The notes: generated by a model not told the origin, from the letters alone. A stretch of 64,000 nt of DNA from Candidatus Nomurabacteria bacterium GW2011_GWD2_36_14 (GCA_000991405.1 LBRL01000001.1:625841-689840), one strand, 5' to 3'; numbered from the stretch's first letter, positions 175 to 46,103 are shown. Numbers and translations: made by a program.

Positions 175-279
175 AACAACGGCACACAAGATTTATAATT
201 TAAGCCCAGAAAGGGGTAACAGAAAATTTTGTGTGCCAAAACGCTTAAATTATTCTGTTATCCCTTTCTGGTTTCTGCC

Positions 280-1878
280 ATGAGAAATATTGATTTCAAA
301 TATTTTCTCTATGCAAGAAAATCTAGTGAGTCGGAGGATCGCCAAATGGCCTCCATCGAGGATCAGATTGCAGAAGCTAAGAAATTAGCTGAAAAATATA
401 ACATCAATGTAGTTGATGTTATAGAAGAATCAAAATCTGCAAAAGAGCCAGGTCGAGTTGGATTTAATTCGATGCTTAAACGAATTCATAAAGGAGAAGC
501 CCAAGGAATACTTACTTGGAAGCTCAATCGTTTAGCCAGAAATCCAATAGATGGAGGACAAATAAGTTGGATGCTCCAACAGAATATCATCAAACATATT
601 CAGACCTTTGAAAGAGATTATAATCCTACAGACAATGTCTTGCTCATGCAAGTTGAATTTGGTATGGCTAATCAATACGTCAAAGATTTAAGCCTTGATG
701 TTAAAAGAGGAATGCGTCAAAAAGCTGAAAGAGGTTGGTATCCGATACCTCAATTGCCAATTGGATACATGCATAATCCTCTATTCACTCCCGGGGTTGA
801 AAAAGAAATAATTCCAGATGAAGAAAGATTTTTCATTCTTAAAAAGCTATGGAAATTACTTTTAACTGGTAATTATACTGTTGCTGATTTGAGAAGAAAA
901 GGAAATGCTTTGGGGTTGAAAACTAAAGGGAATAAACAATGTCCTCAATCAACTTATTACTACATATTCACTAATGAATTTTATTCCGGTTATTTTTACT
1001 GGCCAAATAAAGATGGTGGGTTAATTTGCCACAGAGGAAAGCATTTGACTATGATTAGCCCTATAGAGTTTCAAAAGGCTCAAATTATACTTAAAGGAGC
1101 AATTCACTCAATAGGGAAAGAGAGAAAATATGATTTTCCATATAGAGGAATTATTAAATGTGGTGAATGTGGATGTATGGTCACACCAGATCATAAATTG
1201 CAGGCTATTTGTACAAATTGCAAGTTCAAATATTCAGTAAAAAATATGGGGAATTGCCCAAGATGTGATACCCCATTCTCGGAAATGAAAAATCCAAGTA
1301 TAATCGACATCCTTTATTATCACTGTTCTAAAAGCAAGGGAAAATGCTCTCAGGGGTCAATTACAAGAGATGAGATTGACTCTGTAATTGAAAAATCAAT
1401 AGGAGAGATATCAATCTCTAAGGATTACTATCAGTGGTCAATGAATAGATTGAAGGATGGTAATAATAAGGTTGATATACAGGAGGATGAAAAGATAATA
1501 AAGGGACTACTGAAAAAGAAAACTGAACTTGGTAATCGTCTTTTTGAATTAGTAAATCTTCTGGCTGATTGTAAAATCAATTCCGAACAATTCAATTTAT
1601 CTACCTCAAAAACTCAAAAGGAAATATTCTCTATTGAATATGAGATTGAGGAAATTAGTAATAGAAATATCAGGTGGTTCGAGGAAACTAAAAAGGATTA
1701 TAATCTTATGTTGAACGTTCTTGAAAAATTCAAAAATGGTGGAGATCTGGTTAAAACTGAGATAGCTAGGGAGCTATCTTCGAACCTAATTTTAATGGAC
1801 AAAAAGCTTTATTTCACAATGAAAAAATCGTTTTTTGATATTAAGAAGAACCTTACTCTTTGCACCGCAAAAAATTAA
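280..1878 (+). CDS. Large serine recombinase (resolvase + recombinase + Zn-ribbon domains)
   Basis: YARKSSE catalytic motif, SAKEPGR, RLARN, CGECG and YYHC zinc motifs, coiled coil; ATG 280 preferred over TTG 229. Confidence 0.93.
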   Translation: MRNIDFKYFLYARKSSESEDRQMASIEDQIAEAKKLAEKYNINVVDVIEESKSAKEPGRVGFNSMLKRIHKGEAQGILTWKLNRLARNPIDGGQISWMLQQNIIKHIQTFERDYNPTDNVLLMQVEFGMANQYVKDLSLDVKRGMRQKAERGWYPIPQLPIGYMHNPLFTPGVEKEIIPDEERFFILKKLWKLLLTGNYTVADLRRKGNALGLKTKGNKQCPQSTYYYIFTNEFYSGYFYWPNKDGGLICHRGKHLTMISPIEFQKAQIILKGAIHSIGKERKYDFPYRGIIKCGECGCMVTPDHKLQAICTNCKFKYSVKNMGNCPRCDTPFSEMKNPSIIDILYYHCSKSKGKCSQGSITRDEIDSVIEKSIGEISISKDYYQWSMNRLKDGNNKVDIQEDEKIIKGLLKKKTELGNRLFELVNLLADCKINSEQFNLSTSKTQKEIFSIEYEIEEISNRNIRWFEETKKDYNLMLNVLEKFKNGGDLVKTEIARELSSNLILMDKKLYFTMKKSFFDIKKNLTLCTAKN

Positions 1879-1948
1879 CCTTCGAACCTACTTTTACCAT
1901 TAAAAAATAAGGGTAAAATGTAGTTTCTGGGCGAATATTCTAATCGTG

Positions 1949-2021
1949 TCCTCTCGGTAGGAATCGAACCTACGACCATCTCCTTAAAAGGGAGCTGCTC
2001 TACCAACTGAGCTACGAGAGG
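1949..2021 (-). tRNA. tRNA-Lys(TTT)
   Basis: Acceptor CCTCTCG/CGAGAGG, anticodon loop CTTTTAA, GGTTCGATTCC T-arm. Confidence 0.95.
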
Positions 2022-15933: not shown

Positions 15934-15994
15934 TGGTATATTTTAACATAAATAAGGTGAGAACATGAGTATATGTTTCGAACCTTACATTAAT

Positions 15995-16169
15995 GCGGTG
16001 AGACCGTGATTACACTTTTCGAATCTTACAGATTCTGTACACCTTTCGCGTAATTTTAAATATTAATTTAAAATTACAAGCTCAAGGTTTTCTCATCTCA
16101 CACATGAGCAAAGCAGTTTGCTCACTCGCCCGCAAAAAGAAAAACCCTATTTGGGTTTTCTTTTTTTTG
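15995..16169 (-). ncRNA. tRNA-trailer structured element (Ser copy); function unknown
   Basis: 16021-16052 is the exact reverse complement of 23714-23745; flanks copy the tRNA-Ser 3' end. Confidence 0.7.
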
Positions 16170-16256
16170 CGGAAGCGGTGAGATTCGAACTCACGAGGAG
16201 CTTTCACCCCTAACAGTTTTCAAGACTGTCTCGTTAGACCACTCCGACACGCTTCC
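16170..16256 (-). tRNA. tRNA-Ser(TGA)
   Basis: GGAAGCG/CGCTTCC acceptor, loop CTTGAAA, long variable arm. Confidence 0.95.
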
Positions 16257-16266
16257 GAGTATTACA

Positions 16267-16764
16267 CTACCTTATTTTCATTTTTTTTTCAAGTATTGTT
16301 TTCATCCAACTTTTTTCTAAAAGATGCTCTTCGTAATGGCAATTTGGACAAATTATTTCCAAGTTTTCAGTGCTATTATCTGACCTCTTTCTGTTTTTAT
16401 GATGAACTTGTAATATTTCATATTTATTGTAACCACAGCGTTCACAATTTTTTCCTCTTTCTTCTAATAATCTTAATTTTAGAATTCTCAATGTTCTCGC
16501 TTTATCTTTAGGTCTTCCGATTTTATATTTTATTCCCGTTCTATATTTATTTGAACAACTTCTGCTACAAGTTTTTTTATTTAAACCAGCCAAAATTAAT
16601 TTACCACAAACAACACAAGGACTTTCTTTTCTACAAGAGAGTCCATAACAATTCATACTACAAAAGACCTTTCCTTTGCTCTTATCTATTTCAAAAGGTC
16701 TTCTATAAATAGGGGATTTGCAGATTGTACATTTGGTATTAGGATTTCTTTTATACTCAGCCAC
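16267..16764 (-). CDS. HNH endonuclease with N-terminal Cys zinc-binding motifs
   Basis: CERCG...QVHH...DNSTENLEIICPNCHYEEH; FCSMNC and TCSRSC motifs; probable GTG start at 16764. Confidence 0.88.
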   Translation of the reverse strand: MAEYKRNPNTKCTICKSPIYRRPFEIDKSKGKVFCSMNCYGLSCRKESPCVVCGKLILAGLNKKTCSRSCSNKYRTGIKYKIGRPKDKARTLRILKLRLLEERGKNCERCGYNKYEILQVHHKNRKRSDNSTENLEIICPNCHYEEHLLEKSWMKTILEKKMKIR

Positions 16765-16784
16765 TAATCCAGTATACCACAATA

Positions 16785-16822
16785 AATTCTAAAAACAGAC
16801 CACTTGGTCTGTTTTTAGAATT
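16785..16822. terminator. Intrinsic terminator hairpin
   Basis: TTCTAAAAACAGACCA / TGGTCTGTTTTTAGAA inverted repeat. Confidence 0.7.
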
Positions 16823-17048
16823 ATATCTTAGTCTTAAATACTCTGAAGAAATCTTTGGGTGTTCTTTTGGCGATGTAGAAGATATAGAATATATCTAGTA
16901 TTGCAAAAGTGTTTAATACCAAGAGAGCTATGAACCAACGTTTGTGTCCATTGTGTGATGCTGTCCACAAAGAATAGCCTTTCCATGGCAATACCCATAA
17001 AACTGCTAATACTATTAACTTGGGATCCATTTGTAAGAATTGTTCCAT
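16821..17048 (-). CDS. Small membrane protein (DUF5652-like)
   Basis: WVLPWKGYSLW...WFIALLVLNTFAIL. Confidence 0.8.
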   Translation of the reverse strand: MEQFLQMDPKLIVLAVLWVLPWKGYSLWTASHNGHKRWFIALLVLNTFAILDIFYIFYIAKRTPKDFFRVFKTKI

Positions 17049-17101
17049 GAGTATATTTTATCAAGAATACCATTTTACTGCAATTGTGGTAATCTATATG
17101 T

Positions 17102-17524
17102 ATGAGACATTTAGGTATTGATTATGGTTCAAAGAGGGTTGGAGTAGCTATCTCTGACGATGAGGGGAATATTGCCTTCCCTTATAAAATTGTCCCAAAC
17201 AATATGGAACTTCTGGATACTATCCACAATATTTGTGGGACCGAGGAAGTTGGGGCTATTGTACTAGGAGAGTCACATGATTTGAGTGGCAAGCCCAACA
17301 AGATAATGGGAAGTATAGAAGAATTTAAGAGAAATATTGAAGCTGAGCTCGAACTACCAGTTTACTTCCAGAAAGAATTCATGACGACAGTAGAGGCAAG
17401 AGGAAGGGGAGGTAAGGAAATAAATAATGCAAAGAAAGTAGGTATGGGTAAACAAGTCGGAGCTGATGCCTCTGCCGCAGCACTAATACTGCAGAGGTAT
17501 TTAGACAAGAAGAACCAGAAATAA
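17102..17524 (+). CDS. yqgF: YqgF/RuvX pre-16S rRNA nuclease
   Basis: LGIDYGSKRVGVAISD, EFMTT, DASAAALILQRYL. Confidence 0.93.
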   Translation: MRHLGIDYGSKRVGVAISDDEGNIAFPYKIVPNNMELLDTIHNICGTEEVGAIVLGESHDLSGKPNKIMGSIEEFKRNIEAELELPVYFQKEFMTTVEARGRGGKEINNAKKVGMGKQVGADASAAALILQRYLDKKNQK

Positions 17525-17614
17525 TTAATAAAATTCACATGCAACACTTAGTAACGGCCGTTTGTATCTGTTACAAATAAAAACAACATCTTTCCTTTTG
17601 AGATTGATGCTGTT

Positions 17615-18118
17615 TCAGAAGATATTCTTCAAAAATCCCCATAATGAGAATCCAGTTAATACGATAATATTCCAATAAATACTTTTTACAATTATATTTA
17701 GTAAAAAATAATAAATTACATTTTTTCCACTAAATCCATTGTACATATGGAATCCATCTCTCATGTAAAGGACACCTAATCCTGGGTTTTTAAAAGAAAG
17801 TAAAAAAATCAATTTCTTCCTATTGTTTTCTGATTTCTTTACTATAAACTTTATAAGCTTATTCCACTCCTCAATCTTATGGTGATTGAATTGAGCTTCT
17901 TTTAGAGATTCCATCATTATGCAGTCAGTTTTATATTTATCATATAATCTTACTGTTATAACGCCTTTGATAATATAAATTGCAGTAATTATTATAATAC
18001 TTTTTATGAATCCCAATTCAAATATTATAATAGGGGTCAAAATATCATCTATAGATTCCTTAATACTTAAATTAATAAGGAAAATAGAGCTAAATCTAAG
18101 GACTTTTCTTTTTTCCAT
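17615..18118 (-). CDS. Hypothetical membrane protein
   Basis: Very AT-rich ORF with hydrophobic segments. Confidence 0.55.
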   Translation of the reverse strand: MEKRKVLRFSSIFLINLSIKESIDDILTPIIIFELGFIKSIIIITAIYIIKGVITVRLYDKYKTDCIMMESLKEAQFNHHKIEEWNKLIKFIVKKSENNRKKLIFLLSFKNPGLGVLYMRDGFHMYNGFSGKNVIYYFLLNIIVKSIYWNIIVLTGFSLWGFLKNIF

Positions 18119-18202
18119 TATTAAGGTTTTAGAGTTTCGGTTTTAGTCTAGCACAAATAGAATATTTTGCATCAACAGGTTTTTGAAGTATAGTGTATAT
18201 AT

Positions 18203-18556
18203 ATGGAATATGTATCATACGAAGAATTTAAGAAAATGGATATAAGATTAGGGACTATACGCGAAGTAGAGCCTGTGCCAGAGACGGACAAGCTTTTGAA
18301 ATGCCTTATTGATTTTAATGAACAAGATGAAGAGGGGAATAAGAAGTTAAGGCAGATTATTTCTGGAATTCATGAATTTTACCCTGAGTATGAAAAATTA
18401 ATTGGTAAGCAAGTACTGTATATAGTGAACTTAGAGCCAAGAAAGATAAAAGGATTTGAGAGTAATGGAATGCTAATGGCTGTGGATGGGCTCGATGGCA
18501 AGCCAGTGTTCCTAGTGCCAGAAGTACCTGTGGGAGTAGGAAGTAAGGTTCGATAA
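18203..18556 (+). CDS. Stand-alone tRNA-binding OB domain (MetRS C-terminal/CsaA-like)
   Basis: DIRLGTI, DKLL, RQIISGI, NLEPRKIKGFESNGMLM. Confidence 0.9.
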   Translation: MEYVSYEEFKKMDIRLGTIREVEPVPETDKLLKCLIDFNEQDEEGNKKLRQIISGIHEFYPEYEKLIGKQVLYIVNLEPRKIKGFESNGMLMAVDGLDGKPVFLVPEVPVGVGSKVR

Positions 18557-18566
18557 TTATTAGAAT

Positions 18567-18626
18567 ATTTTTCTCCTTAAGGCCTTGCCTTGGGAGCACT
18601 AAAGGCAAGGCCTTTCCCCGAAAAAT
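18567..18626. repeat. Palindromic repeat family B, copy 2
   Basis: Matches 10287-10346; AGGCCTTGCCTT/AAGGCAAGGCCT stem. Confidence 0.85.
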
Positions 18627-19223
18627 ATGCTTGATCCAATATTTTTAATAGAGACGGTAGGACTTATAGGAATTGTATTTATAATCTTTGCTGAGACGGG
18701 GCTCTTCTTTGGATTCTTTTTCCCCGGAGATTCCCTGCTGTTTACTGCGGGACTTCTAGCATCTCAAGGAATTTTCGATATTTACTCTCTTATAATCCTT
18801 TGCATACTTGGAGCGATACTAGGGGATAGTGTAGGATACTGGTCAGGAAAAAAGTATGGAAGAAAGCTCTTTGAGCGAGATGCGGGCTTCTTCTTCAAAA
18901 AGAAAAGAATATATGACGCAGAAGAATTCTATAAGAAGCATGGAAAGTATACAATTATCATTGCACGCTTCGTACCTATCATTCGTACTTTTGCTCCTAT
19001 TGTGGCAGGCATTGGGAAAATGCATTACTCTACTTTCATATCTTACAATATTATCGGCGGAATATTCTGGGTACTGTCTATAACCCTCTTGGGATATATT
19101 TTCGGTGGGATGATTACGAATCCGGATACATACATAATACCTATTGCCCTCCTCATAATCTTCATTTCTGTCATACCAATAATAATAAAAATTATTAAAA
19201 ATAAACTTGCAACTAAGAAATAA
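18627..19223 (+). CDS. DedA family protein
   Basis: FAETGLFFGFFFPGDSLLF, ARFVPIIRTFAP. Confidence 0.93.
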   Translation: MLDPIFLIETVGLIGIVFIIFAETGLFFGFFFPGDSLLFTAGLLASQGIFDIYSLIILCILGAILGDSVGYWSGKKYGRKLFERDAGFFFKKKRIYDAEEFYKKHGKYTIIIARFVPIIRTFAPIVAGIGKMHYSTFISYNIIGGIFWVLSITLLGYIFGGMITNPDTYIIPIALLIIFISVIPIIIKIIKNKLATKK

Positions 19224-19278
19224 TTTTTTCTCATAAACTGTTTACTACATGAGAAATCGGGAGTATACTAGTAAAATA

Positions 19279-20901
19279 ATGAAGCAATTATACAATCGTA
19301 ACTTTCCAACTCCTTCATACTTGGCGATGAATTCCTTTGCGATTGATATTTCTGATCAGTCTATAAAATACGGAGAACTACTGGCGACGCCACTGGGTCT
19401 TCGACTTGGGCGTTTCGGTAAAGAGAAGATACCTGCTGGGGTCGTAGTGTCAGGCAAGATTGAAAACGAAGAAAGTCTTGTCGGTATATTAAAAGATTTG
19501 AAAAAGAAAGAGAATCTCAAATTTGTCCGTGTATCGCTTCCTGAAGAGCAGATGTACTTGTTTACACTTTCCTTGCCTAAGGCCAACGACAAAGACTTGC
19601 GAGATATGATTCTACTTCAGATAGAAGAGCACATACCACTGAAGGCGATGGATACTATATTTGAATATGACACTATTTCAACTTCACCTACTAATATCTT
19701 GGTAGAAGTTTCTGCTATTGCCAGCTCGACAGCCGAAGGGTACTTGTCGGCTTTTGATAAGGCAGGGCTATCAGTACTATCCTTTGAACTTGAGGCACAA
19801 GCTATAGCTAGAGCTGTGATACCGACAGATGACAAAGAACCTACAATGATAGTAGACTTCGGAGATACAAGGACAGGAGTTTCTATAGTGCATGATGGCA
19901 AAGTATTCTTCACCACGACGCTTGATATGGGAGGAATTAATCTGACCAACATGATAGCCAAGAACTTCTCTCTATCTTTCGATAAAGCTGAAGAAATGAA
20001 GCGTTCGTATGGACTAGATGGGATTTCAAATATTGAAGACATCTTCCCAGTTATCCTAAATGGAATTTCAGTCTTGAGAGATGAGTTGAACAAGCAGTAC
20101 CAATACTGGAAGAATCACGACAACTACGGCATATCTCATGATGAGATAACCAAGATAATTCTCTGCGGAGGAGACTCGAACCTAACTGGACTATCTGACT
20201 ACTTAGAAGCTAGTATGAAAATAAAAGTAGAGCATGCCAATGCTTGGGTAAATATTTCTGATATGAAGACGTCGGTTCCTAGTATGTCCTTCCAAGAGTC
20301 CTTGGGGTATGCGACAGTCTTGGGGCTTGCTTTGGGAGGGTTCTCTTATGTATCGAATCCTGTTGTCAACGTATTGCCAGAGGATTACAAGATCGCACTA
20401 AAAAAAGAATATTGGAAAAGATTTGTAATTACTGTCCTACTTTTCTGTTCGGCCTTATTTATAATATTTACACTTTTGTTGCTACCATCTTACCTACTAT
20501 CTGCTTCCAAGCAACAAATATCTGAAAGTAAGCTCGTAGAATTCAACGAAATTAACAAAGACATAACCAGCTTTGATATGGATACAACTATCTCTGATAT
20601 TAATACTAAATTAGAAATATTGTCATCGGCAAATGGAGGTCACTCTGTATATGAAGATATCCTCACCGCGATACTTGCTAGTAGACCCAAAGGGGTTACT
20701 TTCAATCAGATAGTATTTAACCAGAAGAAGGACAAAAAATTGTCAGTCGATATCCACGGTAAAGCTCTCGATCGAGCTACACTACGTAACTTCAAAGCAG
20801 TTCTAGATAGTAATCCTAAAATCGCGACGGTGACTCTACCCATATCTGACTTCTTAGAAAAGACGAATTTGAACTTTACCATTTCACTTATCATGAAATA
20901 A
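19279..20901 (+). CDS. pilM: Type IV pilus PilM with fused PilN-like C-terminus
   Basis: AIDISDQSIK, IVDFGDTRT, ILCGGDSNL, VLGLAL actin fold, then VNVLP + TM + periplasmic domain. Confidence 0.85.
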   Translation: MKQLYNRNFPTPSYLAMNSFAIDISDQSIKYGELLATPLGLRLGRFGKEKIPAGVVVSGKIENEESLVGILKDLKKKENLKFVRVSLPEEQMYLFTLSLPKANDKDLRDMILLQIEEHIPLKAMDTIFEYDTISTSPTNILVEVSAIASSTAEGYLSAFDKAGLSVLSFELEAQAIARAVIPTDDKEPTMIVDFGDTRTGVSIVHDGKVFFTTTLDMGGINLTNMIAKNFSLSFDKAEEMKRSYGLDGISNIEDIFPVILNGISVLRDELNKQYQYWKNHDNYGISHDEITKIILCGGDSNLTGLSDYLEASMKIKVEHANAWVNISDMKTSVPSMSFQESLGYATVLGLALGGFSYVSNPVVNVLPEDYKIALKKEYWKRFVITVLLFCSALFIIFTLLLLPSYLLSASKQQISESKLVEFNEINKDITSFDMDTTISDINTKLEILSSANGGHSVYEDILTAILASRPKGVTFNQIVFNQKKDKKLSVDIHGKALDRATLRNFKAVLDSNPKIATVTLPISDFLEKTNLNFTISLIMK

Positions 20902-20910
20902 ATTTAATAT

Positions 20911-21492
20911 ATGAAAAAAAGTAATACAAACTTAATACTTATCATATCCGTCCTGCTCTTTATAATCTCTGTGGGGTTGTTTGTATACATATATAGAGTT
21001 ATCGAAAACAAGAACAGGCATACCTCGGCTGTCATGGCGACTCTCAATAATAAAATAGCAGAGAAAGAAAATATAAATGTTCTAAATAAAAAGATGGCGG
21101 AGCTAGGAGATGTGCAGAAAAGGATAGGAAGCTATCTGGTGGATACTTCGCAGATTGATACATTTGTAGGATATCTAGAGGAGATGGGGGCAGACAACAA
21201 TATAGACTTATCGGTCAAAAGTGTAGAAGTTCCTAAAAATGAAAAGAATAAAATCTCCTTATCTATAGACATAAGAGGAAGCTTTGAAAATATTCTGAAA
21301 GGGATATCCTTGCTAGAAAATGCTCCATACAATATAAGCGTAACATCTTTGTTCTTAAATAAAGATATGACAGAGAATGAATCTGACCAGAACATTTTCT
21401 TAGAGACTACTCCAGCTAAAACGAAAGAAGTCTTTACTCCTGCGAAGTCTGTATGGCAAGCCAACTTATCATTTAATGTGTTAAGTTTATAA
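20911..21492 (+). CDS. PilO-like pilus assembly protein
   Basis: N-terminal TM, coiled coil, RGSFENILKGISLLENAPY; follows pilM. Confidence 0.7.
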   Translation: MKKSNTNLILIISVLLFIISVGLFVYIYRVIENKNRHTSAVMATLNNKIAEKENINVLNKKMAELGDVQKRIGSYLVDTSQIDTFVGYLEEMGADNNIDLSVKSVEVPKNEKNKISLSIDIRGSFENILKGISLLENAPYNISVTSLFLNKDMTENESDQNIFLETTPAKTKEVFTPAKSVWQANLSFNVLSL

Positions 21493-21499
21493 AATCCAT

Positions 21500-21817
21500 A
21501 TGAAAACTTTTTTAACAAAAATTAAAGACATGGGAAAATCTTTCCATAACTTCTGCAAGATTAATCCTTATAAGCAATGGATGACACTTCTGTATACATT
21601 CTTCGTAATAGTATTTATCTGCATTTTGTCCAGTTTTTACCTTCTGTATGAAATAAAAAATGATAAGATCTTTCAAGTGAAAGTGGAGCAGGTAGAGAAA
21701 AAGAGCTTGCTAAAAGAAGATCTTCTAAAAAAGACGATAAACTTGTACGACACGAAGTTCAAGAAAGAAACCGATTTAATAAGCAACCCCCCAGTATTTA
21801 AAGACCCGAGTTTATAG
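21500..21817 (+). CDS. Hypothetical single-TM protein of the pilus cluster
   Basis: TM helix, C-terminal DPS motif, operon position. Confidence 0.65.
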   Translation: MKTFLTKIKDMGKSFHNFCKINPYKQWMTLLYTFFVIVFICILSSFYLLYEIKNDKIFQVKVEQVEKKSLLKEDLLKKTINLYDTKFKKETDLISNPPVFKDPSL

Positions 21818-21887
21818 GAAACTTGAATTTTAATGGAATTATGCTAGTATAAAAGCGTGTAAAGATTTCACGATCGTTGAAGAATAT

Positions 21888-21960
21888 GCGCGCTTAGCTC
21901 AGTTGGTAGAGCAACTCATTTACACTGAGAAGGTCGGGGGTTCAAGTCCCTCAGCGCGCA
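21888..21960 (+). tRNA. tRNA-Val(TAC)
   Basis: GCGCGCT/AGCGCGC acceptor, loop TTTACAC. Confidence 0.95.
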
Positions 21961-21982
21961 CAAAGCTCATAAGGCCCCTTCT

Positions 21983-22054
21983 GCCCCTGTAGTTCAATGG
22001 ATAGAACTGCGGACTTCTAAGCCGTCGATGTAGGTTCGATTCCTGCCAGGGGCA
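21983..22054 (+). tRNA. tRNA-Arg(TCT)
   Basis: GCCCCTG/CAGGGGC acceptor, loop CTTCTAA. Confidence 0.94.
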
Positions 22055-22055
22055 C

Positions 22056-22844
22056 ATGAAATTAAAAATCCTTTTCGAAGACAAGAATATCTTGGTTATA
22101 GACAAACCGGCGGGTATTGCTGTGCATGCAGATGCTCGAACTAAGAAAAATGAAAAAACTATTGCTGATCTAATACTTGATTACGATAAATCTATTGCCA
22201 AAGTAGGGGAGCCTATGACCATAGAGTACAAGGGTGAGGAGATTAAAATAAAACGCCCCGGCATAGTGCATCGTCTAGATAGAGAGACTTCCGGAGTCTT
22301 GCTTGTGGCCAAGAATCAGAAAACATTTCTGTTCCTCAAGGAACAATTCCAGAATCATACTATCGAGAAAGTATATAGAGCATTTGTATATGGGCATGTG
22401 TCAGATCCAAAGGCTTCGCTTGCTACTGGCAAGAAGGGAATTATAGATGTTCCAATAGGACGCTCGCCGATAGATATACGTATGTGGACAGCTGGACGGG
22501 GAGCTCGCCCACCTCTACGAGACGCAGTGACAGGATACAAAGTTCTAGAAAGATTTTCGGATAATGATACAAAGGGTCTTAATCAAGACAATAAATTCTC
22601 GTATATAGAAGCATATCCAAAGACTGGCAGAACTCACCAGATCCGAGTACATATGAGGTACATCAACCACCCTGTCGTTTCAGATCCACTTTATAGAGGT
22701 AATCAAGAACTAGCCCTTGGAATGAAGAGATTGGCTCTGCATTCCTACTCTATAACTTTCCGAATGCCAAATGGTGATAAGAAAACCATAGAGTCTCCAC
22801 TACCAGCCGACTTTACAAAGGTAATAAAAGAGTATTTACAATAA
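22056..22844 (+). CDS. RluA family pseudouridine synthase
   Basis: DKPAG, HRLDRETSG, TGRTHQIRVH. Confidence 0.95.
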   Translation: MKLKILFEDKNILVIDKPAGIAVHADARTKKNEKTIADLILDYDKSIAKVGEPMTIEYKGEEIKIKRPGIVHRLDRETSGVLLVAKNQKTFLFLKEQFQNHTIEKVYRAFVYGHVSDPKASLATGKKGIIDVPIGRSPIDIRMWTAGRGARPPLRDAVTGYKVLERFSDNDTKGLNQDNKFSYIEAYPKTGRTHQIRVHMRYINHPVVSDPLYRGNQELALGMKRLALHSYSITFRMPNGDKKTIESPLPADFTKVIKEYLQ

Positions 22845-23023
22845 TCTTGTCCCCACACCTACTTTTTAATTATTGTGCTTTTGTGACTTTTTCTCTCAAA
22901 ATGGTGTTTCTTATATATAAAAATATACAATATTATCATTAAAGTAATGGCACAATTTAAAAGCCATAAAAAAGTAGGTGTGGGGGCTTGCTCTAAATAG
23001 GTATATATGATAAAGTAGAACCC

Positions 23024-23431
23024 ATGGAAATAACGAAAAAACAATTTACTCCTGTTGAGCAGAACGACCGAAAAAACCTTGATTTTAAGGCTGGTGACAC
23101 TGTCCGCGTCTGGAATAAAATAATGGAAAAAGGAAAAGTTCGTCTTCAGGCTTTTGAAGGACTAGTTCTCTCACGTAAGCATGGTACTGAAAGTGGAGCC
23201 ACATTTACAATACGAAAAGTAGCTAGTGGAGTTGGAGTAGAACGTATCTTTCCTTTATATTCTCCAAATATTGATAAGATTGAAATCCTAAGAAAGTCTA
23301 AAACTCGCCGTAACAAGCTTTACTACATCCGAACAAAGGCGGTTAAGGAAGTGAAGAAGAGATTAAAGAGTATTACAATATCAAGAGAAGACAAGGCAGA
23401 AGATGTTGTAGAAGAAAAATCAGCAGAATAA
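23024..23431 (+). CDS. rplS: 50S ribosomal protein L19
   Basis: FKAGDTVRV, RLQAFEG, GVGVERIFP, KLYYIR. Confidence 0.97.
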   Translation: MEITKKQFTPVEQNDRKNLDFKAGDTVRVWNKIMEKGKVRLQAFEGLVLSRKHGTESGATFTIRKVASGVGVERIFPLYSPNIDKIEILRKSKTRRNKLYYIRTKAVKEVKKRLKSITISREDKAEDVVEEKSAE

Positions 23432-23456
23432 AAACAGCCCTGAGGGCTGTTTTTTT
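23431..23456 (+). terminator. Intrinsic terminator after rplS
   Basis: AACAGCCC-TGA-GGGCTGTT followed by T run. Confidence 0.85.
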
Positions 23457-23508
23457 GATTGAAAAAATCTTAATAATTCGTTATACTCGAGATGTTTGAA
23501 GTATTAAT

Positions 23509-23592
23509 GCACGGGTGGCGAAACTGGTAGACGCACTACCTTGAGGTGGTAGCGCCCGCAAGGGCATGGAAGTTCAAATCTTCTCTCGTGCA
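23509..23592 (+). tRNA. tRNA-Leu(GAG)
   Basis: Stem CTACC/GGTAG, loop TTGAGGT, long variable arm. Confidence 0.95.
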
Positions 23593-23778
23593 CAATAATA
23601 AAAACCTTCTTTCTGAAGGTTTTTATTATTGTGCACGAGAGTGAGACAACTGCTTGTCTCACGTAGAGGAGTTGAAGACCTTGAGCTTGGATTTTGAAAT
23701 GTTAATTTCAAAATACGCGAAAGGTGTACAGAATCTGTAAGATTCAAGAAGCGTACTCGCGGTCATCTCTGTTGCGCA
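23593..23778 (+). ncRNA. tRNA-trailer structured element (Leu copy); function unknown
   Basis: 27 bp inverted repeat overlapping the tRNA 3' end; core homologous to Ser copy; AAGCGTACTCGCGGTC shared with His copy. Confidence 0.7.
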
Positions 23779-23868
23779 AACTAAAAATTATGAGGCAAGA
23801 CTATTTTATAATTTACTTGCTTATCCAAATGCTTCCGTAACTAAAATTAATTGGATAAAATAAAGTTT

Positions 23869-24729
23869 TTATCCAATTTTTAAAAGAACAATACCAACAA
23901 AACTCAAAAATGCGAGTAAGATTTTCTTTTTTGTTAATTTTTCTTTGAAGAAAATTAAACCAAAAATTCCAGCGATAAAAGTATACGCGGGGTGGATTGC
24001 ATAAACTCCCGAAAGTGGACCAAAAGAAAGGGCTTTGAAAATTGCGTAACCGCCCGCGACAGAAAACAAACCTATAAGAACCGAACCTTTCCAGTATTTG
24101 TCTAAATGAGTTATATTTACAAATTTTTCCTTTTCAAAAATGTATGCAATTAAAAGACCAAAAAGTGCGGCACCTAGATATTGCCAGAGCATAAAGTGAG
24201 AAACAGAATCATTAACTGCACCCAACTTCTGAATATATTTTGACGCAGTCGATGAAACTATAATTCCCAGAGAAAGTAAAATAGTTTTTTGATCGAGTGG
24301 GAATGAGCCAGTTTTTCTTGTGAAAAGAAAAACTGAAAGTAAAATAATTGCAATACCAGCTGTCTGTATAATAGAAACATGTTCAGAGAGAACAGTTATG
24401 CCGATTAAAACAGTAACAACACTTCCAATTGATGATGTAACTGGATACGCTGAATTTGTCTCAACATTTTGAAGTAAAATCTTTTGTAAAACCATATTAA
24501 TAGCAAAGAATCCACCCCAAACTATTGCATACCAAGATATGGTTGATAATCCTGATAAATAACTTTGACCAAACAATACAAGAGCTATTAACACAAAAAA
24601 TGCTGAAAAAAGATTTGTCCAAAACGTAGAAAAGAAACTACTATAACCCTTGAATGAGGGCATTTTGTACAAAGACATTGATATACCCAGCAATATTGTT
24701 GAGGCAATTGAATATGAAAGCCAGTTCAT
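23869..24729 (-). CDS. DMT/EamA family transporter
   Basis: About 10 TM helices in two repeats; FFKEKLTKKKIL. Confidence 0.88.
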   Translation of the reverse strand: MNWLSYSIASTILLGISMSLYKMPSFKGYSSFFSTFWTNLFSAFFVLIALVLFGQSYLSGLSTISWYAIVWGGFFAINMVLQKILLQNVETNSAYPVTSSIGSVVTVLIGITVLSEHVSIIQTAGIAIILLSVFLFTRKTGSFPLDQKTILLSLGIIVSSTASKYIQKLGAVNDSVSHFMLWQYLGAALFGLLIAYIFEKEKFVNITHLDKYWKGSVLIGLFSVAGGYAIFKALSFGPLSGVYAIHPAYTFIAGIFGLIFFKEKLTKKKILLAFLSFVGIVLLKIG

Positions 24730-24885
24730 AATATTTACTTTAACATAAATTCGTTTTTCATTCTATTCTTTAGGGAGCAAAATTTATGTGTGAAATGGAG
24801 AGTAGGTTGAGCACAATAATAAGATATGTATCTAGATCTTGCCTCACGATTTTTAAATATCAGCTTTTAATATATAATAGATGAT

Positions 24886-25458
24886 ATGATAACATTTTTA
24901 TTTAGTTTATTTACGTGGATTGCTTTCTTGGTTCTTTTGATAGTATTTTTTTTATTACTTTTATGGATGTGGAGCAGTATAAAAGCAAAAGTTCCATTTA
25001 TAGGAGTTCCTACTAAAACTTTAAAAGATATAGAGAAAGCTCTTAATATAAACGAAGATAGTGTTGTCTACGATTTAGGTTGTGGGGATGGAAGAGTTCT
25101 TTTTTATTTATACAAGAATAATCCTAAGGCTAAATATATAGGAATTGAAAATAGCCAATTCCCCCTCCTTGTTTTCAATGTTAGGAATTGGTTTTTCAAG
25201 AGAAAAAACAAATCGAATATTTCAATCATTGGAAAAGACTTTTTTGATGTAAACTTGTCAGATGCTACTCATATATTTACTTATCTTTACCCAAATGTAA
25301 TGGATGACTTACTTGCAAAGTTTGATAAAGAACTTAAGAGGGGAACTCGCCTTGTATCAGCATCCTTCCACTTTACAACAAAACGTGAAGTAGAAGTCCT
25401 TGATCTAAAAAGAGGTAAATGGGAGCTTGCAAGGGAGATTTATGTGTATGAATTCTAA
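24886..25458 (+). CDS. Membrane-anchored class I SAM methyltransferase
   Basis: VPFI, YDLGCGDGR, GIE, FTYL motifs. Confidence 0.85.
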   Translation: MITFLFSLFTWIAFLVLLIVFFLLLLWMWSSIKAKVPFIGVPTKTLKDIEKALNINEDSVVYDLGCGDGRVLFYLYKNNPKAKYIGIENSQFPLLVFNVRNWFFKRKNKSNISIIGKDFFDVNLSDATHIFTYLYPNVMDDLLAKFDKELKRGTRLVSASFHFTTKREVEVLDLKRGKWELAREIYVYEF

Positions 25459-25523
25459 ATAAGTTAACATTTTCTGAGATTTTATTTTACTAAAACTTCT
25501 CTAAGAGGTATAATAAACCTAGT

Positions 25524-27656
25524 ATGACTACTGGCGAACTAATAGACTACATAAAGTCACAGCTTAATAAAAATATTCCTAAATATTTAATTATTTCTCG
25601 CCTCATAGAAGTTGGGTGGAGGATGGAAGATATAGAGGAAGGCTTTTCAAATATAGAACCCAAAGTAGCTCTGCCAGTTGCAGAACCTATAAAACCAGTA
25701 GAACCACAAGTCTTCGAGCCAGTAATTCAGCCAGTAGAACTTGAAAAACCAACAGTGGAGCCAGTAGTAGAACCTTTAAAGCAAGAAGAGCCCAAAAAGA
25801 TTTGGACTCCTATTGTAGTAGAACCCAAGACCGTAGATGTAAGTAAGCCATCGGCTATAGAACTATACAATCTAGAAATCGAACAAGCAGAAAAGCCAGT
25901 AGTAGAAGTAGCTTCTATGGAAGAAGCACCAAAAACAATTACCCACAAATTTGAAGTATCGAATATAGAGATCCCTAAAGAAGAAGCGCCTGTAGAAGCA
26001 CTTGTAGAAATGCCAGCAGAAGAACTTATACCTACAATCAACAAGGAAGTTAAACCTTCATCGGAATATTTAGACTTACAGAGAGATAGTCAGGCGATAC
26101 TAGATCCATATATTGACAATGCTCCTGTTGTAAAGGCCAACATGTCAGATGTTGTACCTAGGACGGCGATGATATCTTCGTATTCTCAAGATATTTTGTC
26201 TGCAAATACCACAGAAGAAAGCCCAAAGCCTGTAATACAGAAGAAGTCTATTATAAAAATATTGATTGTTATTCTCATCTGTTCGTTCGTTGGAGGAATG
26301 GTCTTTGCTTTTGTAAGTGGTAGCATCAAATTACCTGGATTCAAGAAAAGCTTTTCTATTGTGAAGAAAGATCCTAGAAGTATAATTCTAAATACTCCAA
26401 ACAATATCTCAAAATTAAAATCATATAAAATAGAAAGTGAAGTGACCGTGTCCTCTCCATCGTTTTCAAGTATTACGACAGGACTTGCTAGTGGGGAAGC
26501 CGTTACTTCAAAAGACAAAGAATCCATTGCTATTATCGTTAAAGGAATGGCCAATCATGTAAACAACAAACTAGTCTTTGATAATCTTGTAACACTTAAA
26601 AGTTCTATATTAGAAAATGATATTGTAAGTGATTGGAAGTACGACGGATCTACTTTCTACGTGTCGGTTCCTGACTTAAACTTAGTAATAGGCAAGGATG
26701 CACCTGCCCCTGCCCTAGTACAACTAACTCCAGATCAGCTTGGAACTATGGTGCCACAATTCTCTCCAGAGATTGCAGATATGATAAAGAAAGTAGACAT
26801 ATACAACGTTATGTCGGAAGGAGTGCCCTTATATGTGAGGACGGAAGCCACTTCTATAGTTAAAGAATTTATCAATAGTACAGAGTATACAGGTAAAGGG
26901 AAGGAAGATATCCATGGCGTTAGCACCTACCATTATGAACTGACCGCAGACCGTCCTTCTACTAAAAAGCTTGTGGGCTCCTTGGTAGATCTTCTGACAA
27001 TGAAGTTGCCAGCAGACCAGAGACAGAATCTAGATGAGGCTATCGGGGCCTCTTCTATAACTGCTTTCGAGGTATGGATTGGAGAGAATGATGATAATTT
27101 GTACCAGATCAAATTTACTTTGAACATGCCTCTATCAAGAGTCTTGGGATTAAATGATAGTGGTATAGGAGATAATGAAGTTAAACTAGAATGGAGAACT
27201 ACTTACTTTGACATAGATGTGGAGAACAAGATTGATATGCCGAGTGATGCAATAGATATGAAAACTTTTATAAATAATGTAAAAGATACAAAAATAAAAA
27301 GCATGGCTTCTGCCTTCCTTGCACAAGCGACAGTCTTTAAAAATGCAGTAGGCTCGTATGGATCTAGGTCTAATCCAACAGGAAGTTGTACGAACCCAAA
27401 TCCTAGCTCACTCTTCTCTCCAAAGGGGCATAAAAAGAGTGCCGATACAGCCATTGCTTCTATCTCGGCTTCGATGAACTCACTACTGAGTGATACCAAT
27501 GGACTAGGGTCTTGCTACTCTACTTCTACTGCTTGGGCGATAGCTCTACCTTTGTTCAGCAATCCGGATCCAGCAAATCCAAGTTACTATTGTACTGATA
27601 GCAGTGGCAATACGACTACTCTTACAAACGCTATAACAGGTCCAATCTGTAAATAA
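25524..27656 (+). CDS. Large membrane-anchored protein: Pro/Glu-rich linker, TM, LppX-like domain, pilin-like C-terminus
   Basis: PVEP-rich region, one TM, GKEDIHGVSTYHY, AWAIALPL...YYCTDSSG...C. Confidence 0.65.
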   Translation: MTTGELIDYIKSQLNKNIPKYLIISRLIEVGWRMEDIEEGFSNIEPKVALPVAEPIKPVEPQVFEPVIQPVELEKPTVEPVVEPLKQEEPKKIWTPIVVEPKTVDVSKPSAIELYNLEIEQAEKPVVEVASMEEAPKTITHKFEVSNIEIPKEEAPVEALVEMPAEELIPTINKEVKPSSEYLDLQRDSQAILDPYIDNAPVVKANMSDVVPRTAMISSYSQDILSANTTEESPKPVIQKKSIIKILIVILICSFVGGMVFAFVSGSIKLPGFKKSFSIVKKDPRSIILNTPNNISKLKSYKIESEVTVSSPSFSSITTGLASGEAVTSKDKESIAIIVKGMANHVNNKLVFDNLVTLKSSILENDIVSDWKYDGSTFYVSVPDLNLVIGKDAPAPALVQLTPDQLGTMVPQFSPEIADMIKKVDIYNVMSEGVPLYVRTEATSIVKEFINSTEYTGKGKEDIHGVSTYHYELTADRPSTKKLVGSLVDLLTMKLPADQRQNLDEAIGASSITAFEVWIGENDDNLYQIKFTLNMPLSRVLGLNDSGIGDNEVKLEWRTTYFDIDVENKIDMPSDAIDMKTFINNVKDTKIKSMASAFLAQATVFKNAVGSYGSRSNPTGSCTNPNPSSLFSPKGHKKSADTAIASISASMNSLLSDTNGLGSCYSTSTAWAIALPLFSNPDPANPSYYCTDSSGNTTTLTNAITGPICK

Positions 27657-27772
27657 CATAAATAATCTCCACATTCACCTCCCGCCTAGATTTTTTAGGC
27701 ATTTTCTGGTATAACTGGGTAGTTACCACAGTATTTCATGGTGGTAAATAATAGTGTTTGTGTATATGACAT

Positions 27773-27848
27773 GGTGCCTATAGTGTAATGGTTAGCACTA
27801 GAGTTTGTGGAACTCTCAGTCTGGGTTCAAATCCCAGTAGGCACCCCA
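27773..27848 (+). tRNA. tRNA-His(GTG)
   Basis: G-1, GTGCCTA/TAGGCAC acceptor, loop TTGTGGA, encoded CCA. Confidence 0.95.
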
Positions 27849-28090
27849 AAAATAAAGAAGTAAATATATTAATATTTACGGATTATATTTTGGCGTGCCT
27901 ACTGGGATTTGTAAACCGCAGGCGGTATACAAGCAAGTTACTACTTGGCTTGTCGCCGAGGTGGGGTCGAGAGTACTTAGTCTACGGAAGGTGTAATCAT
28001 CTGAGTAGACTTAGTAACTCGTGACAATTCCCAGTAGTGTTATATTATGTAATAGTCAAAAAGCGTACTCGCGGTCCCAGTAGTACCCCG
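27849..28090 (+). ncRNA. tRNA-trailer structured element (His copy); function unknown
   Basis: 17 nt perfect antisense of the tRNA 3' end at 27895-27911; direct TCCCAGTAG copies at 28029 and 28075; 16-mer shared with Leu copy. Confidence 0.65.
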
Positions 28091-45941: not shown

Positions 45942-45976
45942 AAAAAATTGTTTTGGTTAGTTAGTTTTTTAAAATT

Positions 45977-46085
45977 TAAACCTATGTATTTGGAAGTGAG
46001 GTGTGATTCCTCTACTGTGCCGCAACGGTAATGCTCGTAAGAGATAAGTCCGATCTTAATACAACGGTGTTTCCCGAGCAGGAGA
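45977..46085 (+). promoter_or_regulatory. Cobalamin riboswitch (short variant)
   Basis: GGAA-GTGAGGTG-TGATTCCTCT-ACTGTGCCGCAACGGTAA...AAGTCCGA core; TGTATT/AATACA closing stem. Confidence 0.85.
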
Positions 46086-46103
46086 AATCTACTATTATTT
46101 TAG

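Follow-up and report, generated by a model that had tools for sequence, protein, structure and literature searches.

A gene-less module with inverted and direct copies of the host tRNA tail behind tRNA genes of a Candidate Phyla Radiation genus

The window analysed here is a stretch of 64,000 nucleotides from Candidatus Nomurabacteria bacterium GW2011_GWD2_36_14 (LBRL01000001.1:625841-689840), a bacterium of the Candidate Phyla Radiation (CPR) whose genome (803 kb in 4 contigs, 99% complete) contains 42 tRNA genes and a tmRNA gene. This source genome is called G000 below; other G numbers denote genomes and L numbers the loci compared. The window carries genes for tRNA-Ser(TGA), tRNA-Leu(GAG) and tRNA-His(GTG), and behind each of them lies a copy of what we call the module, a unit of 150-230 bases that holds no gene and repeats the tail of its own tRNA in both inverted and direct orientation (Table 1). 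Positions within the module are given in tRNA numbering, the host genes being mostly without CCA.

The original prediction, made from the sequence of the window alone, placed structured elements behind these three genes, and both the tRNA genes and the adjoining stretches are as it claimed. When each tRNA was folded together with its element, so that the tRNA itself is included, the fold was far more stable than in shuffles at all three loci (z scores of -6.75, -9.72 and -8.56). The 32-nt identity pointed out between the Ser and Leu copies is exact (23714-23745 is the reverse complement of 16021-16052) and is the longest stretch common to the two; the end motif, a 14-nt hairpin followed by TC, is likewise identical in the Leu copy, where it begins at 23749, and in the His copy, where it begins at 28061, with a variant in the Ser copy at 16004-16017. 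Contigs from four other studies' runs, none of them flagged as a possible source, showed zero differences, in the pieces listed, over the 3' part of the Ser copy, the whole Leu copy and the His copy, so that the copies in the window are not an assembly artefact. A joint 16048/23718 in one run is explained by the 32-nt repeat. A single layout had been proposed for all three copies; this is true of the canonical Ser and Leu copies, while the His copy is rearranged, with an unsplit antisense arm, another core and an extra tail copy, and has a model score of 26 bits compared with 97 and 92 for Ser and Leu. Two details of the proposed anatomy had to be revised: the hairpin with the AACTGCTT loop, assigned to the core, instead interrupts the antisense arm at the 66/65 step of the tRNA, and the direct copy, taken to start at 60, starts instead at T-loop position 55-56 and is interrupted by the 14-nt hairpin. 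The statement that an accessory gene follows each element also needs qualification, in that the DMT gene behind the Leu element sits on the opposite strand.

The general anatomy was derived from 198 distinct tRNA-adjacent copies, pooled from all loci gathered and representing 29 tRNA kinds including tmRNA; related genomes were included, and the copies are therefore not independent. In the canonical order, the tRNA gene is followed by an A-tract/hairpin/T-tract, an antisense copy of 73-66, a 25-nt A...GT hairpin and an antisense copy of 65-54. Next come the core stem, whose tip varies, GTAC and a hairpin of six pairs with GTA in its loop; after these stand a copy of 55-59, a constant 14-nt hairpin and a copy of 60-73. 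Both tail copies are broken at fixed points, the antisense copy by the hairpin of about 25 nt at 66/65 and the direct copy by the 14-nt hairpin at 59/60. The insert at 66/65 is 25 nt long in 118 of the 173 copies that parsed, the base preceding the 14-nt hairpin equals host position 59 in 192/198 copies, and position 57 agrees with the host in 196/198. The direct copy of 60-73 matches at 13-14 of 14 positions in 74/198 copies, is worn or cut in 108, lies nearer to another tail in 14 and is cut by the contig end in 2; breaks in its identity concentrate at 65-68 (73/480 at risk, compared with 68/966 elsewhere), next to the 66/65 hairpin.

A constant scaffold whose arms track the adjacent tRNA had been predicted, and this is borne out by host matching in the 198-copy set as well as in an earlier set of 97 units, in which the anti-acceptor and anti-T arms were scored against the host tail and non-cognate tails. 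In 70/97 units the anti-acceptor arm matches its host at no fewer than 7/8 positions, a level reached by 4.7% of the 6072 pairings with non-cognate tails; for the anti-T arm, 91/97 units match at no fewer than 6/7 positions, as against 20% for non-cognate tails. At wobble or mismatch positions of the tRNA, the arm complements the 3' strand exactly in 81 cases and copies the 5' strand in 2 (3 neither), and in a second count does so in 33 and 2 (2 neither); these counts are somewhat biased toward this outcome because the arm parser picked the best match to the expected complement. The arm is therefore templated on the 3' strand and is not a tRNA duplicate. An origin from a tRNA pseudogene or duplicate was rejected on the same counts, the left arm not being a copy of the tRNA 5' strand. 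Tandem-repeated units make up 6/97. One tRNA-Gly element (L295:3330-3480) is a chimera with Gly arms and a Pro-type direct copy, and a tRNA-Pro element lies close by.

Among 68 aligned modules, the proposed structure, which was drawn from the same sequences, is paired in 95.7% of cells, and two-sided changes occur in 16/23 pairs, values that no shuffle or slid control reached. Wobble cells number 30 of about 1500 paired (~2%). The last-but-one hairpin forms 6/6 pairs in the triloop register in 72/87 cases, while the register of a GNRA tetraloop never gives more than 3/6. GNA triloops are a mini-hairpin motif of DNA whose RNA forms are much weaker (PMC13037366, in part). The GTA triloops and the scarcity of wobble pairs point to single-stranded DNA and not to RNA, which supports the folded single-stranded DNA suggested in the original prediction; the folded strand would be the tRNA-sense strand.

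The module family is widespread in one CPR genus. The end motif was found in 67/93 genomes of the genus and in 6/301 genomes of the class-wide sample, with zero in the reversed control. A covariance-type model of the module (R1) gave 16 matches in G000 at E <= 0.1, of which 15 stand at 13 tRNA or tmRNA loci and one lies in frame in mnmA; the highest-scoring copy has the arms of tRNA-Lys(TTT), yet it lies 28 kb from that tRNA gene, the two being separated by an island that carries two serine recombinases and ends within the window. R1 matched 2/151 genomes of the phylum sample, namely G000 and a weak second one, which means that this sequence family is narrow and nothing more. The expected position 3' of tRNA genes was examined in genome and metagenome scans, and the majority of matches are linked. 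Among 120 genome matches, 74 lie at most 700 nt behind a called tRNA, 31 are by eye cut, tmRNA-linked, missed or displaced, and the other 15, all non-CPR, were judged by eye to be chance matches and excluded; 14 of these fall within one conserved protein gene, probably Lon. Among 114 distinct metagenome matches, 74 are tRNA-linked and 40 are cut, tmRNA-linked, missed or displaced. Neither of two end motifs was matched in viral contigs.

Remnants and variants occur in G000 as well. Second-type cores or a lone anti-acceptor arm, without a right end, remain at tRNA-Thr 42026, tRNA-Val 235364 and tRNA-Gln 297955 on C1, and a second-type core in the opposite orientation stands behind the 5S rRNA gene (G000:C2:34600-34900, L013), with a repeat of ~19 bp of the 5S 3' flank.

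Presence of the module differs among corresponding sites, counts of filled and empty sites recording presence only and not telling gain from loss. At the rplS-tRNA-Leu site the element is present in 8/28 loci with that tRNA, and at tRNA-His sites the right end is present in 13/29, in a sample skewed toward filled sites. By eye, nine empty tRNA-Leu loci have a methyltransferase-type open reading frame (ORF) directly behind the tRNA, and the same ORF occurs at five filled loci. One terminator is common to empty and filled sites (G360/G375 and G035/G366, G035 being empty and G366 filled), and the module accordingly starts where the terminator ends. Downstream genes differ among relatives, at empty sites too. 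In addition, cores are shared between tRNA kinds: the His and Lys cores of G033 are identical at 76/77 positions, the nearest core belongs to the tRNA of another amino acid in 56/78 cases, and mean core similarity is 0.72 for the same tRNA and 0.69 for different amino acids. At L274, the copy at the tRNA is identical at 146/147 positions to a displaced copy and stands behind a different terminator. Filled and empty orthologous sites, together with near-identical cores at different tRNAs, indicate from comparative sequence that the module is likely mobile.

Layout, covariation, patchy presence, cores common to different tRNA kinds, and tandem and displaced copies are all observed. On balance, we think it probable that this gene-less module, with its inverted and direct copies of 54-73 and its predicted single-stranded DNA fold, moves between tRNA 3' ends by copying its arms from the new target; a non-autonomous element that copies its target on insertion was among the options of the original prediction and fits best. 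Within the tRNA-sense strand, pairing between the two tail copies, inverted and direct, would yield a double-stranded image of the T-arm and acceptor strand (54-73), from which two hairpins, at 66/65 and 59/60, would be flipped out. After a putative nick made in trans near 59/60, fold-back synthesis might start at the terminator hairpin and switch templates at the T-loop, which is nearly constant, thereby writing host-matched arms around a core taken from another copy.

Several observations weigh against movement of this kind. Besides the parser bias and the presence-only counts already mentioned, the closing pair of the triloop is T-A in 78/87 cases and so offers little variation, and gene conversion among old copies could account for cores common to several loci. 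In assembled contigs of seven runs, contigs being prone to drop rare forms, neither an excised circle nor an empty allele nor any other excision joint was found. A core distant from any tRNA (G000:C1:215696-215760), consisting of a core and a GTA hairpin without clear arms, lies in frame and antisense in the variable loop of mnmA. Where arm and host disagree, the direct copy agrees with the host (54 versus 4 and 27 versus 9), which does not support continual copying of the present arm into the direct copy; if the arm was ever copied into the tail, this would thus be a one-off event at formation.

G000 has no reverse transcriptase and no IS110/DEDD recombinase; it encodes one Xer-type tyrosine recombinase, three serine recombinases, three small GIY-YIG genes and four Y1 (RAYT-like) genes (C1:45805-46476, C1:247903-248619, C1:482091-482738 and C2:50006-50665), each of the latter bracketed by its own short palindrome unrelated to the module. 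Xer-type genes are present in 87/93 and GIY-YIG genes in 89/93 genomes of the genus, and their near-universality makes co-occurrence uninformative. Y1 genes are found in 58/67 genomes with the motif and 17/26 others (p 0.037, uncorrected for kinship or completeness), leaving 9/67 and 9/26, respectively, without a Y1 match.

Among 304 distinct right ends, the intact genes recognised within short units are small GIY-YIG genes in three units (L476/L505, L485 and L088), abutting the right end in the first two and lying further in at L088; other inserts are a serine-recombinase fragment (L067) and a longer insert (L083). Small GIY-YIG genes lie at most 400 nt behind a tRNA in 14/58 cases, compared with 13/706 ORFs in G000, and a module right end follows the gene in 3/84 GIY-YIG ORFs, the left side differing from the module. 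GIY-YIG proteins of the Ssn family cut hairpin single-stranded DNA, and their layout is likened by the authors to an insertion sequence (PMC11893778, in part). A stand-alone GIY-YIG protein of ~85 residues is, on these comparisons, the leading candidate nuclease, tentatively and with the balance of probability still against it. The GIY-YIG units lack antisense arms, have their own palindromic leader, fall into at least two protein clades and stand mostly at tRNA-Gln, compared with 29 tRNA kinds for the modules; the CPR protein tested has UPF0213 proteins as its closest structures, and none of the three small GIY-YIG genes of G000 lies within a unit. These genes may therefore be passengers, given the absent arms, the preference for tRNA-Gln and the UPF0213-like protein, and a nuclease alone cannot join strands. 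Four GIY-YIG proteins fell in no NCBIfam family above the cut-off, and a GIY-YIG query against viral contigs returned two short, weak matches.

Further arrangements of such genes were seen. Throughout the order, one UPF0213-like GIY-YIG clade is found behind tRNA-Gln, in many cases together with a palindromic leader (L514-L543). At L493, L494 and L495 a terminal inverted repeat that encloses a GIY-YIG gene comes directly after tRNA-His and precedes a short tail copy, and at L505, L506, L510 and L121 small GIY-YIG or HNH genes separate an intact tRNA gene from a duplicate of its 5' part.

Other explanations were weighed against movement by target copying. One of them, which we regard as unlikely, is that a folded single-stranded circle rebuilds the target in the manner of CTX attP(+), and that a recombinase or HUH transposase acting in trans swaps one strand near 59-61, which would leave the tRNA functional, beside one inverted copy and a direct copy that is interrupted. 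In the part of PMC3089051 consulted, inverted and direct copies ~90 nt apart on one strand of CTX/IMEX attP(+) fold up as a double-stranded site, one centre of which has additional bases, and integration of the phage leaves one working site and two dead, opposite copies ~90 bp apart, one with a longer centre; the geometry is the same, and the module likewise has two inverted site copies that fold into one site. The common Xer-type gene and the somewhat greater frequency of Y1 genes alongside the motif are in keeping with such an exchange. By itself, however, it does not explain a change of target, because a foreign tail would break the tRNA, and the arm 61-73 varies over 29 tRNA kinds; moreover, G000 has a single tyrosine recombinase, no IS110 and only Y1 genes with unrelated flanking palindromes, nine motif-bearing genomes have no Y1 match, and the contigs of the seven runs contained no circle. 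The module also differs from CTX attP(+) in targeting tRNA/tmRNA tails instead of dif, in lacking phage genes and in having arms that differ per target. It is less probable still that the modules are old residents, often lost and homogenised by gene conversion, with arms kept matched by palindrome-perfecting template switches and no dedicated enzyme. Terminator hairpins that by eye appear locus-specific across genomes, chimeras such as the Gly element with a Pro-type tail, and the slightly greater likeness of cores at the same tRNA are compatible with it, as is the count at those of positions 62-65 where the direct copy departs from its host: the arm agrees with the host in 28 cases and with the copy in 4. 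It would, however, require ~29 separate origins, all with the same two insertion points, and it has to contend with the fresh copy behind a new terminator at L274, with the contrast between class-wide and genus frequencies of the motif, and with the near-invariance of the unpaired motifs GTAC, GTA and TA[C/A/T]T, which suggests recognition by a protein.

A role of the element in read-through RNA, where the antisense arm would sequester the tRNA 3' half and the direct copy would free it, controlling maturation, is very improbable in our estimate, and the cis-antisense control of tRNA maturation offered in the original prediction is judged unlikely with it. The tRNA and element are stable as an RNA fold, the tRNA-linked repeats of rRNA operons in E. 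coli are transcribed (PMC8144298, in part), and the 66/65 split is the place where the D and anticodon arms join a tRNA; yet a terminator-like hairpin stands between gene and module, the loops are of DNA type and wobble pairs are rare, the top-scoring G000 copy is displaced from its tRNA, and presence is patchy. We give least credence, and very little, to the capture of accessory genes at tRNA 3' ends by an attC-like site. Such capture would accord with the order tRNA-element-gene-element at two loci (L274 and L121) and with the variation of downstream genes among relatives, but these genes vary at empty sites as well, the same methyltransferase-type ORF stands behind filled and empty Leu sites, and no second site follows the downstream genes in the window. 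The second element at L274 and L121 is preceded by a partial tail junction, as at the serine-recombinase island, and G000 has no second tyrosine recombinase. Integron attC sites form gene-site arrays served by an integron integrase, and the module differs from them: G000 has only the one Xer-type gene, and the gene that follows a filled site can equally follow an empty one.

Integrative islands at tRNA 3' ends leave a direct repeat of the tRNA tail (attL/attR). The module differs from them in having no integrase or cargo, in its inverted copy and in a direct copy that is split within the T-loop. The insertion of serine-recombinase islands, which come to lie between tRNA and module, is an event apart from this. 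REP/REPIN sequences with RAYT, and IS200/IS605 elements, include non-autonomous single-stranded DNA hairpins. To our knowledge, neither has 20-nt arms or a duplicate of its target, and the module, unlike REP/RAYT, does not flank Y1 genes, the four of G000 having other palindromes. Base-pairing guides are used in IS200/IS605 (partly PMC3184786). Ssn loci have features in common with the module, with a single-domain GIY-YIG gene beside hairpin repeats, gene-less and gene-bearing forms and a single-stranded DNA substrate (PMC11893778, in part), but the repeats of the module are long, multi-hairpin and target-matched, in addition to the UPF0213-like structure of the CPR protein; the main text of PMC11893778 has no mention of tRNA or CPR.

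The module had not been recognised as a named family in the original prediction. No Rfam module family reached the gathering score in the window, and at eight other G000 loci (E <= 1) only tRNA, tmRNA, rRNA, one intron and sub-threshold matches were returned, but a described counterpart with the same layout exists in the tRNA-linked repeats (TLRs) of E. coli. As described in part of PMC8144298, there are 22 TLRs at 10 loci, including RtT (RF00391), first described in 1978 and with no known function or origin; they stand behind tRNA and 5S genes, copy the tail of the host from about 59, duplicate the final 18-19 bp of the gene upstream of them and form tandem arrays. Similarly, the module stands directly behind a tRNA or rRNA gene with one to several copies per locus. 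Its tail repeat covers 60-73, at 13-14 of 14 positions in 74/198 copies, and is worn or cut in 108. All 14 tRNA TLRs that we tested (14/14) have an antisense match of 6-7/7 to 65-59, where 4 of 7 bases are constant, followed in several by the same GAGAA variant; they end in GNA-triloop hairpins, with CGA ahead of the last small hairpin. In contrast to the module, no clear split anti-acceptor arm is present in E. coli, and host tracking is weak, since four of the seven matched bases are constant. R1 did not match the E. coli TLRs at E up to 5, and RF00391 had no match in G000. No antisense arm or mobility is named for TLRs in the part of PMC8144298 consulted; the antisense arm may already be in print. 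A literature search covering few subscription papers and no supplements returned no description of the CPR module family. The CPR module works like a TLR, with a resemblance in layout only and no detectable sequence similarity. A bolder proposal, unlikely in our estimate, is that the module would be a self-reprogramming single-stranded DNA element whose 20-nt DNA guide is written from the tRNA gene it reaches, cut by the ~85-residue GIY-YIG nuclease of sister units, and that it would represent a CPR branch of the process that makes TLRs.

Table 1. Coordinates of the host tRNA genes and module parts in the window, in tRNA numbering where bases are named
Feature	Position	Strand	Remark
tRNA-Ser(TGA), host of copy 1	16169..16256	-	tRNA call
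Ser terminator-like hairpin (A-tract/hairpin/T-tract)	16134..16168	-	probably the gene's own; found at empty sites too
Ser antisense arm to acceptor 3' strand	16127..16133	-	shortened
Ser 25-nt A...GT hairpin	16102..16126	-	splits antisense arm at 66/65
Ser antisense arm to T-stem 3' strand and T-loop	16090..16101	-	65 to 54
Ser core stem	16041..16089	-	variable AT-rich tip
Ser GTAC and GTA-triloop hairpin	16021..16040	-	3' end doubles as copy of T-loop 54-56
Ser copy of 57-59, then constant 14-nt hairpin	16004..16020	-
Ser direct tail copy	15990..16003	-	unbroken over 60-68, lost beyond
tRNA-Leu(GAG), host of copy 2	23509..23593	+	tRNA call
Leu terminator-like hairpin	23594..23630	+
Leu antisense arm to acceptor 3' strand	23631..23639	+	74 to 66, exact
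Leu 25-nt hairpin	23640..23664	+	at 66/65
Leu antisense arm	23665..23676	+	65 to 54; fits host's unusual A57, mismatches at 62 and 59
Leu core stem and GTA-triloop hairpin	23677..23745	+	23714-23745 as in Ser copy
Leu copy of 57-59 and 14-nt hairpin	23746..23762	+
Leu direct tail copy	23763..23778	+	worn
tRNA-His(GTG), host of copy 3	27774..27848	+	tRNA call
His terminator-like hairpin, then antisense copy	27848..27914	+	copy unsplit, 73 to about 55
His second core type	27915..28037	+	ends in internal tail copy (28026-28037)
His second right end	28044..28090	+	GTA-triloop hairpin, 57-59, 14-nt hairpin, tail copy
tRNA-Lys(TTT)	1948..2021	-	its element ~28 kb off at G000:C1:599807-599903

Besides these features, the island at tRNA-Lys(TTT) (window 229-2021, L010 and L011; 28 kb) contains its two serine recombinases, both large, and, by eye, SIR2/HerA-like, ThiF/JAB-like and coupling-protein-like genes. 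An HNH endonuclease gene (window 16267-16782, minus strand) ends 10 bases ahead of tRNA-Ser(TGA), and a cobalamin riboswitch (window 45965-46096, plus strand) exceeds its Rfam gathering score. A group I intron match (L013:3556-3797, minus strand) lies within a 23S rRNA gene of G000.

The module is real, base-precise in its anatomy and unexplained, a counterpart in layout of the likewise unsolved TLRs. Hundreds of copies on 29 targets fix this anatomy to the base, with two copies of 54-73, two flipped-out hairpins and a candidate cut at 59/60, so that the question of TLR origin and function can be put to the test with oligonucleotides and three candidate enzymes of small size; an antisense arm is legible in the repeats of E. 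coli as well. If it is true that the target writes the arms, the module would be a mobile element retargeted without RNA and without a change of protein, which would be relevant to DNA-guided tools. The streamlined genomes of CPR bacteria would, to judge from their sequences, carry an active layer of micro-elements at tRNA ends.

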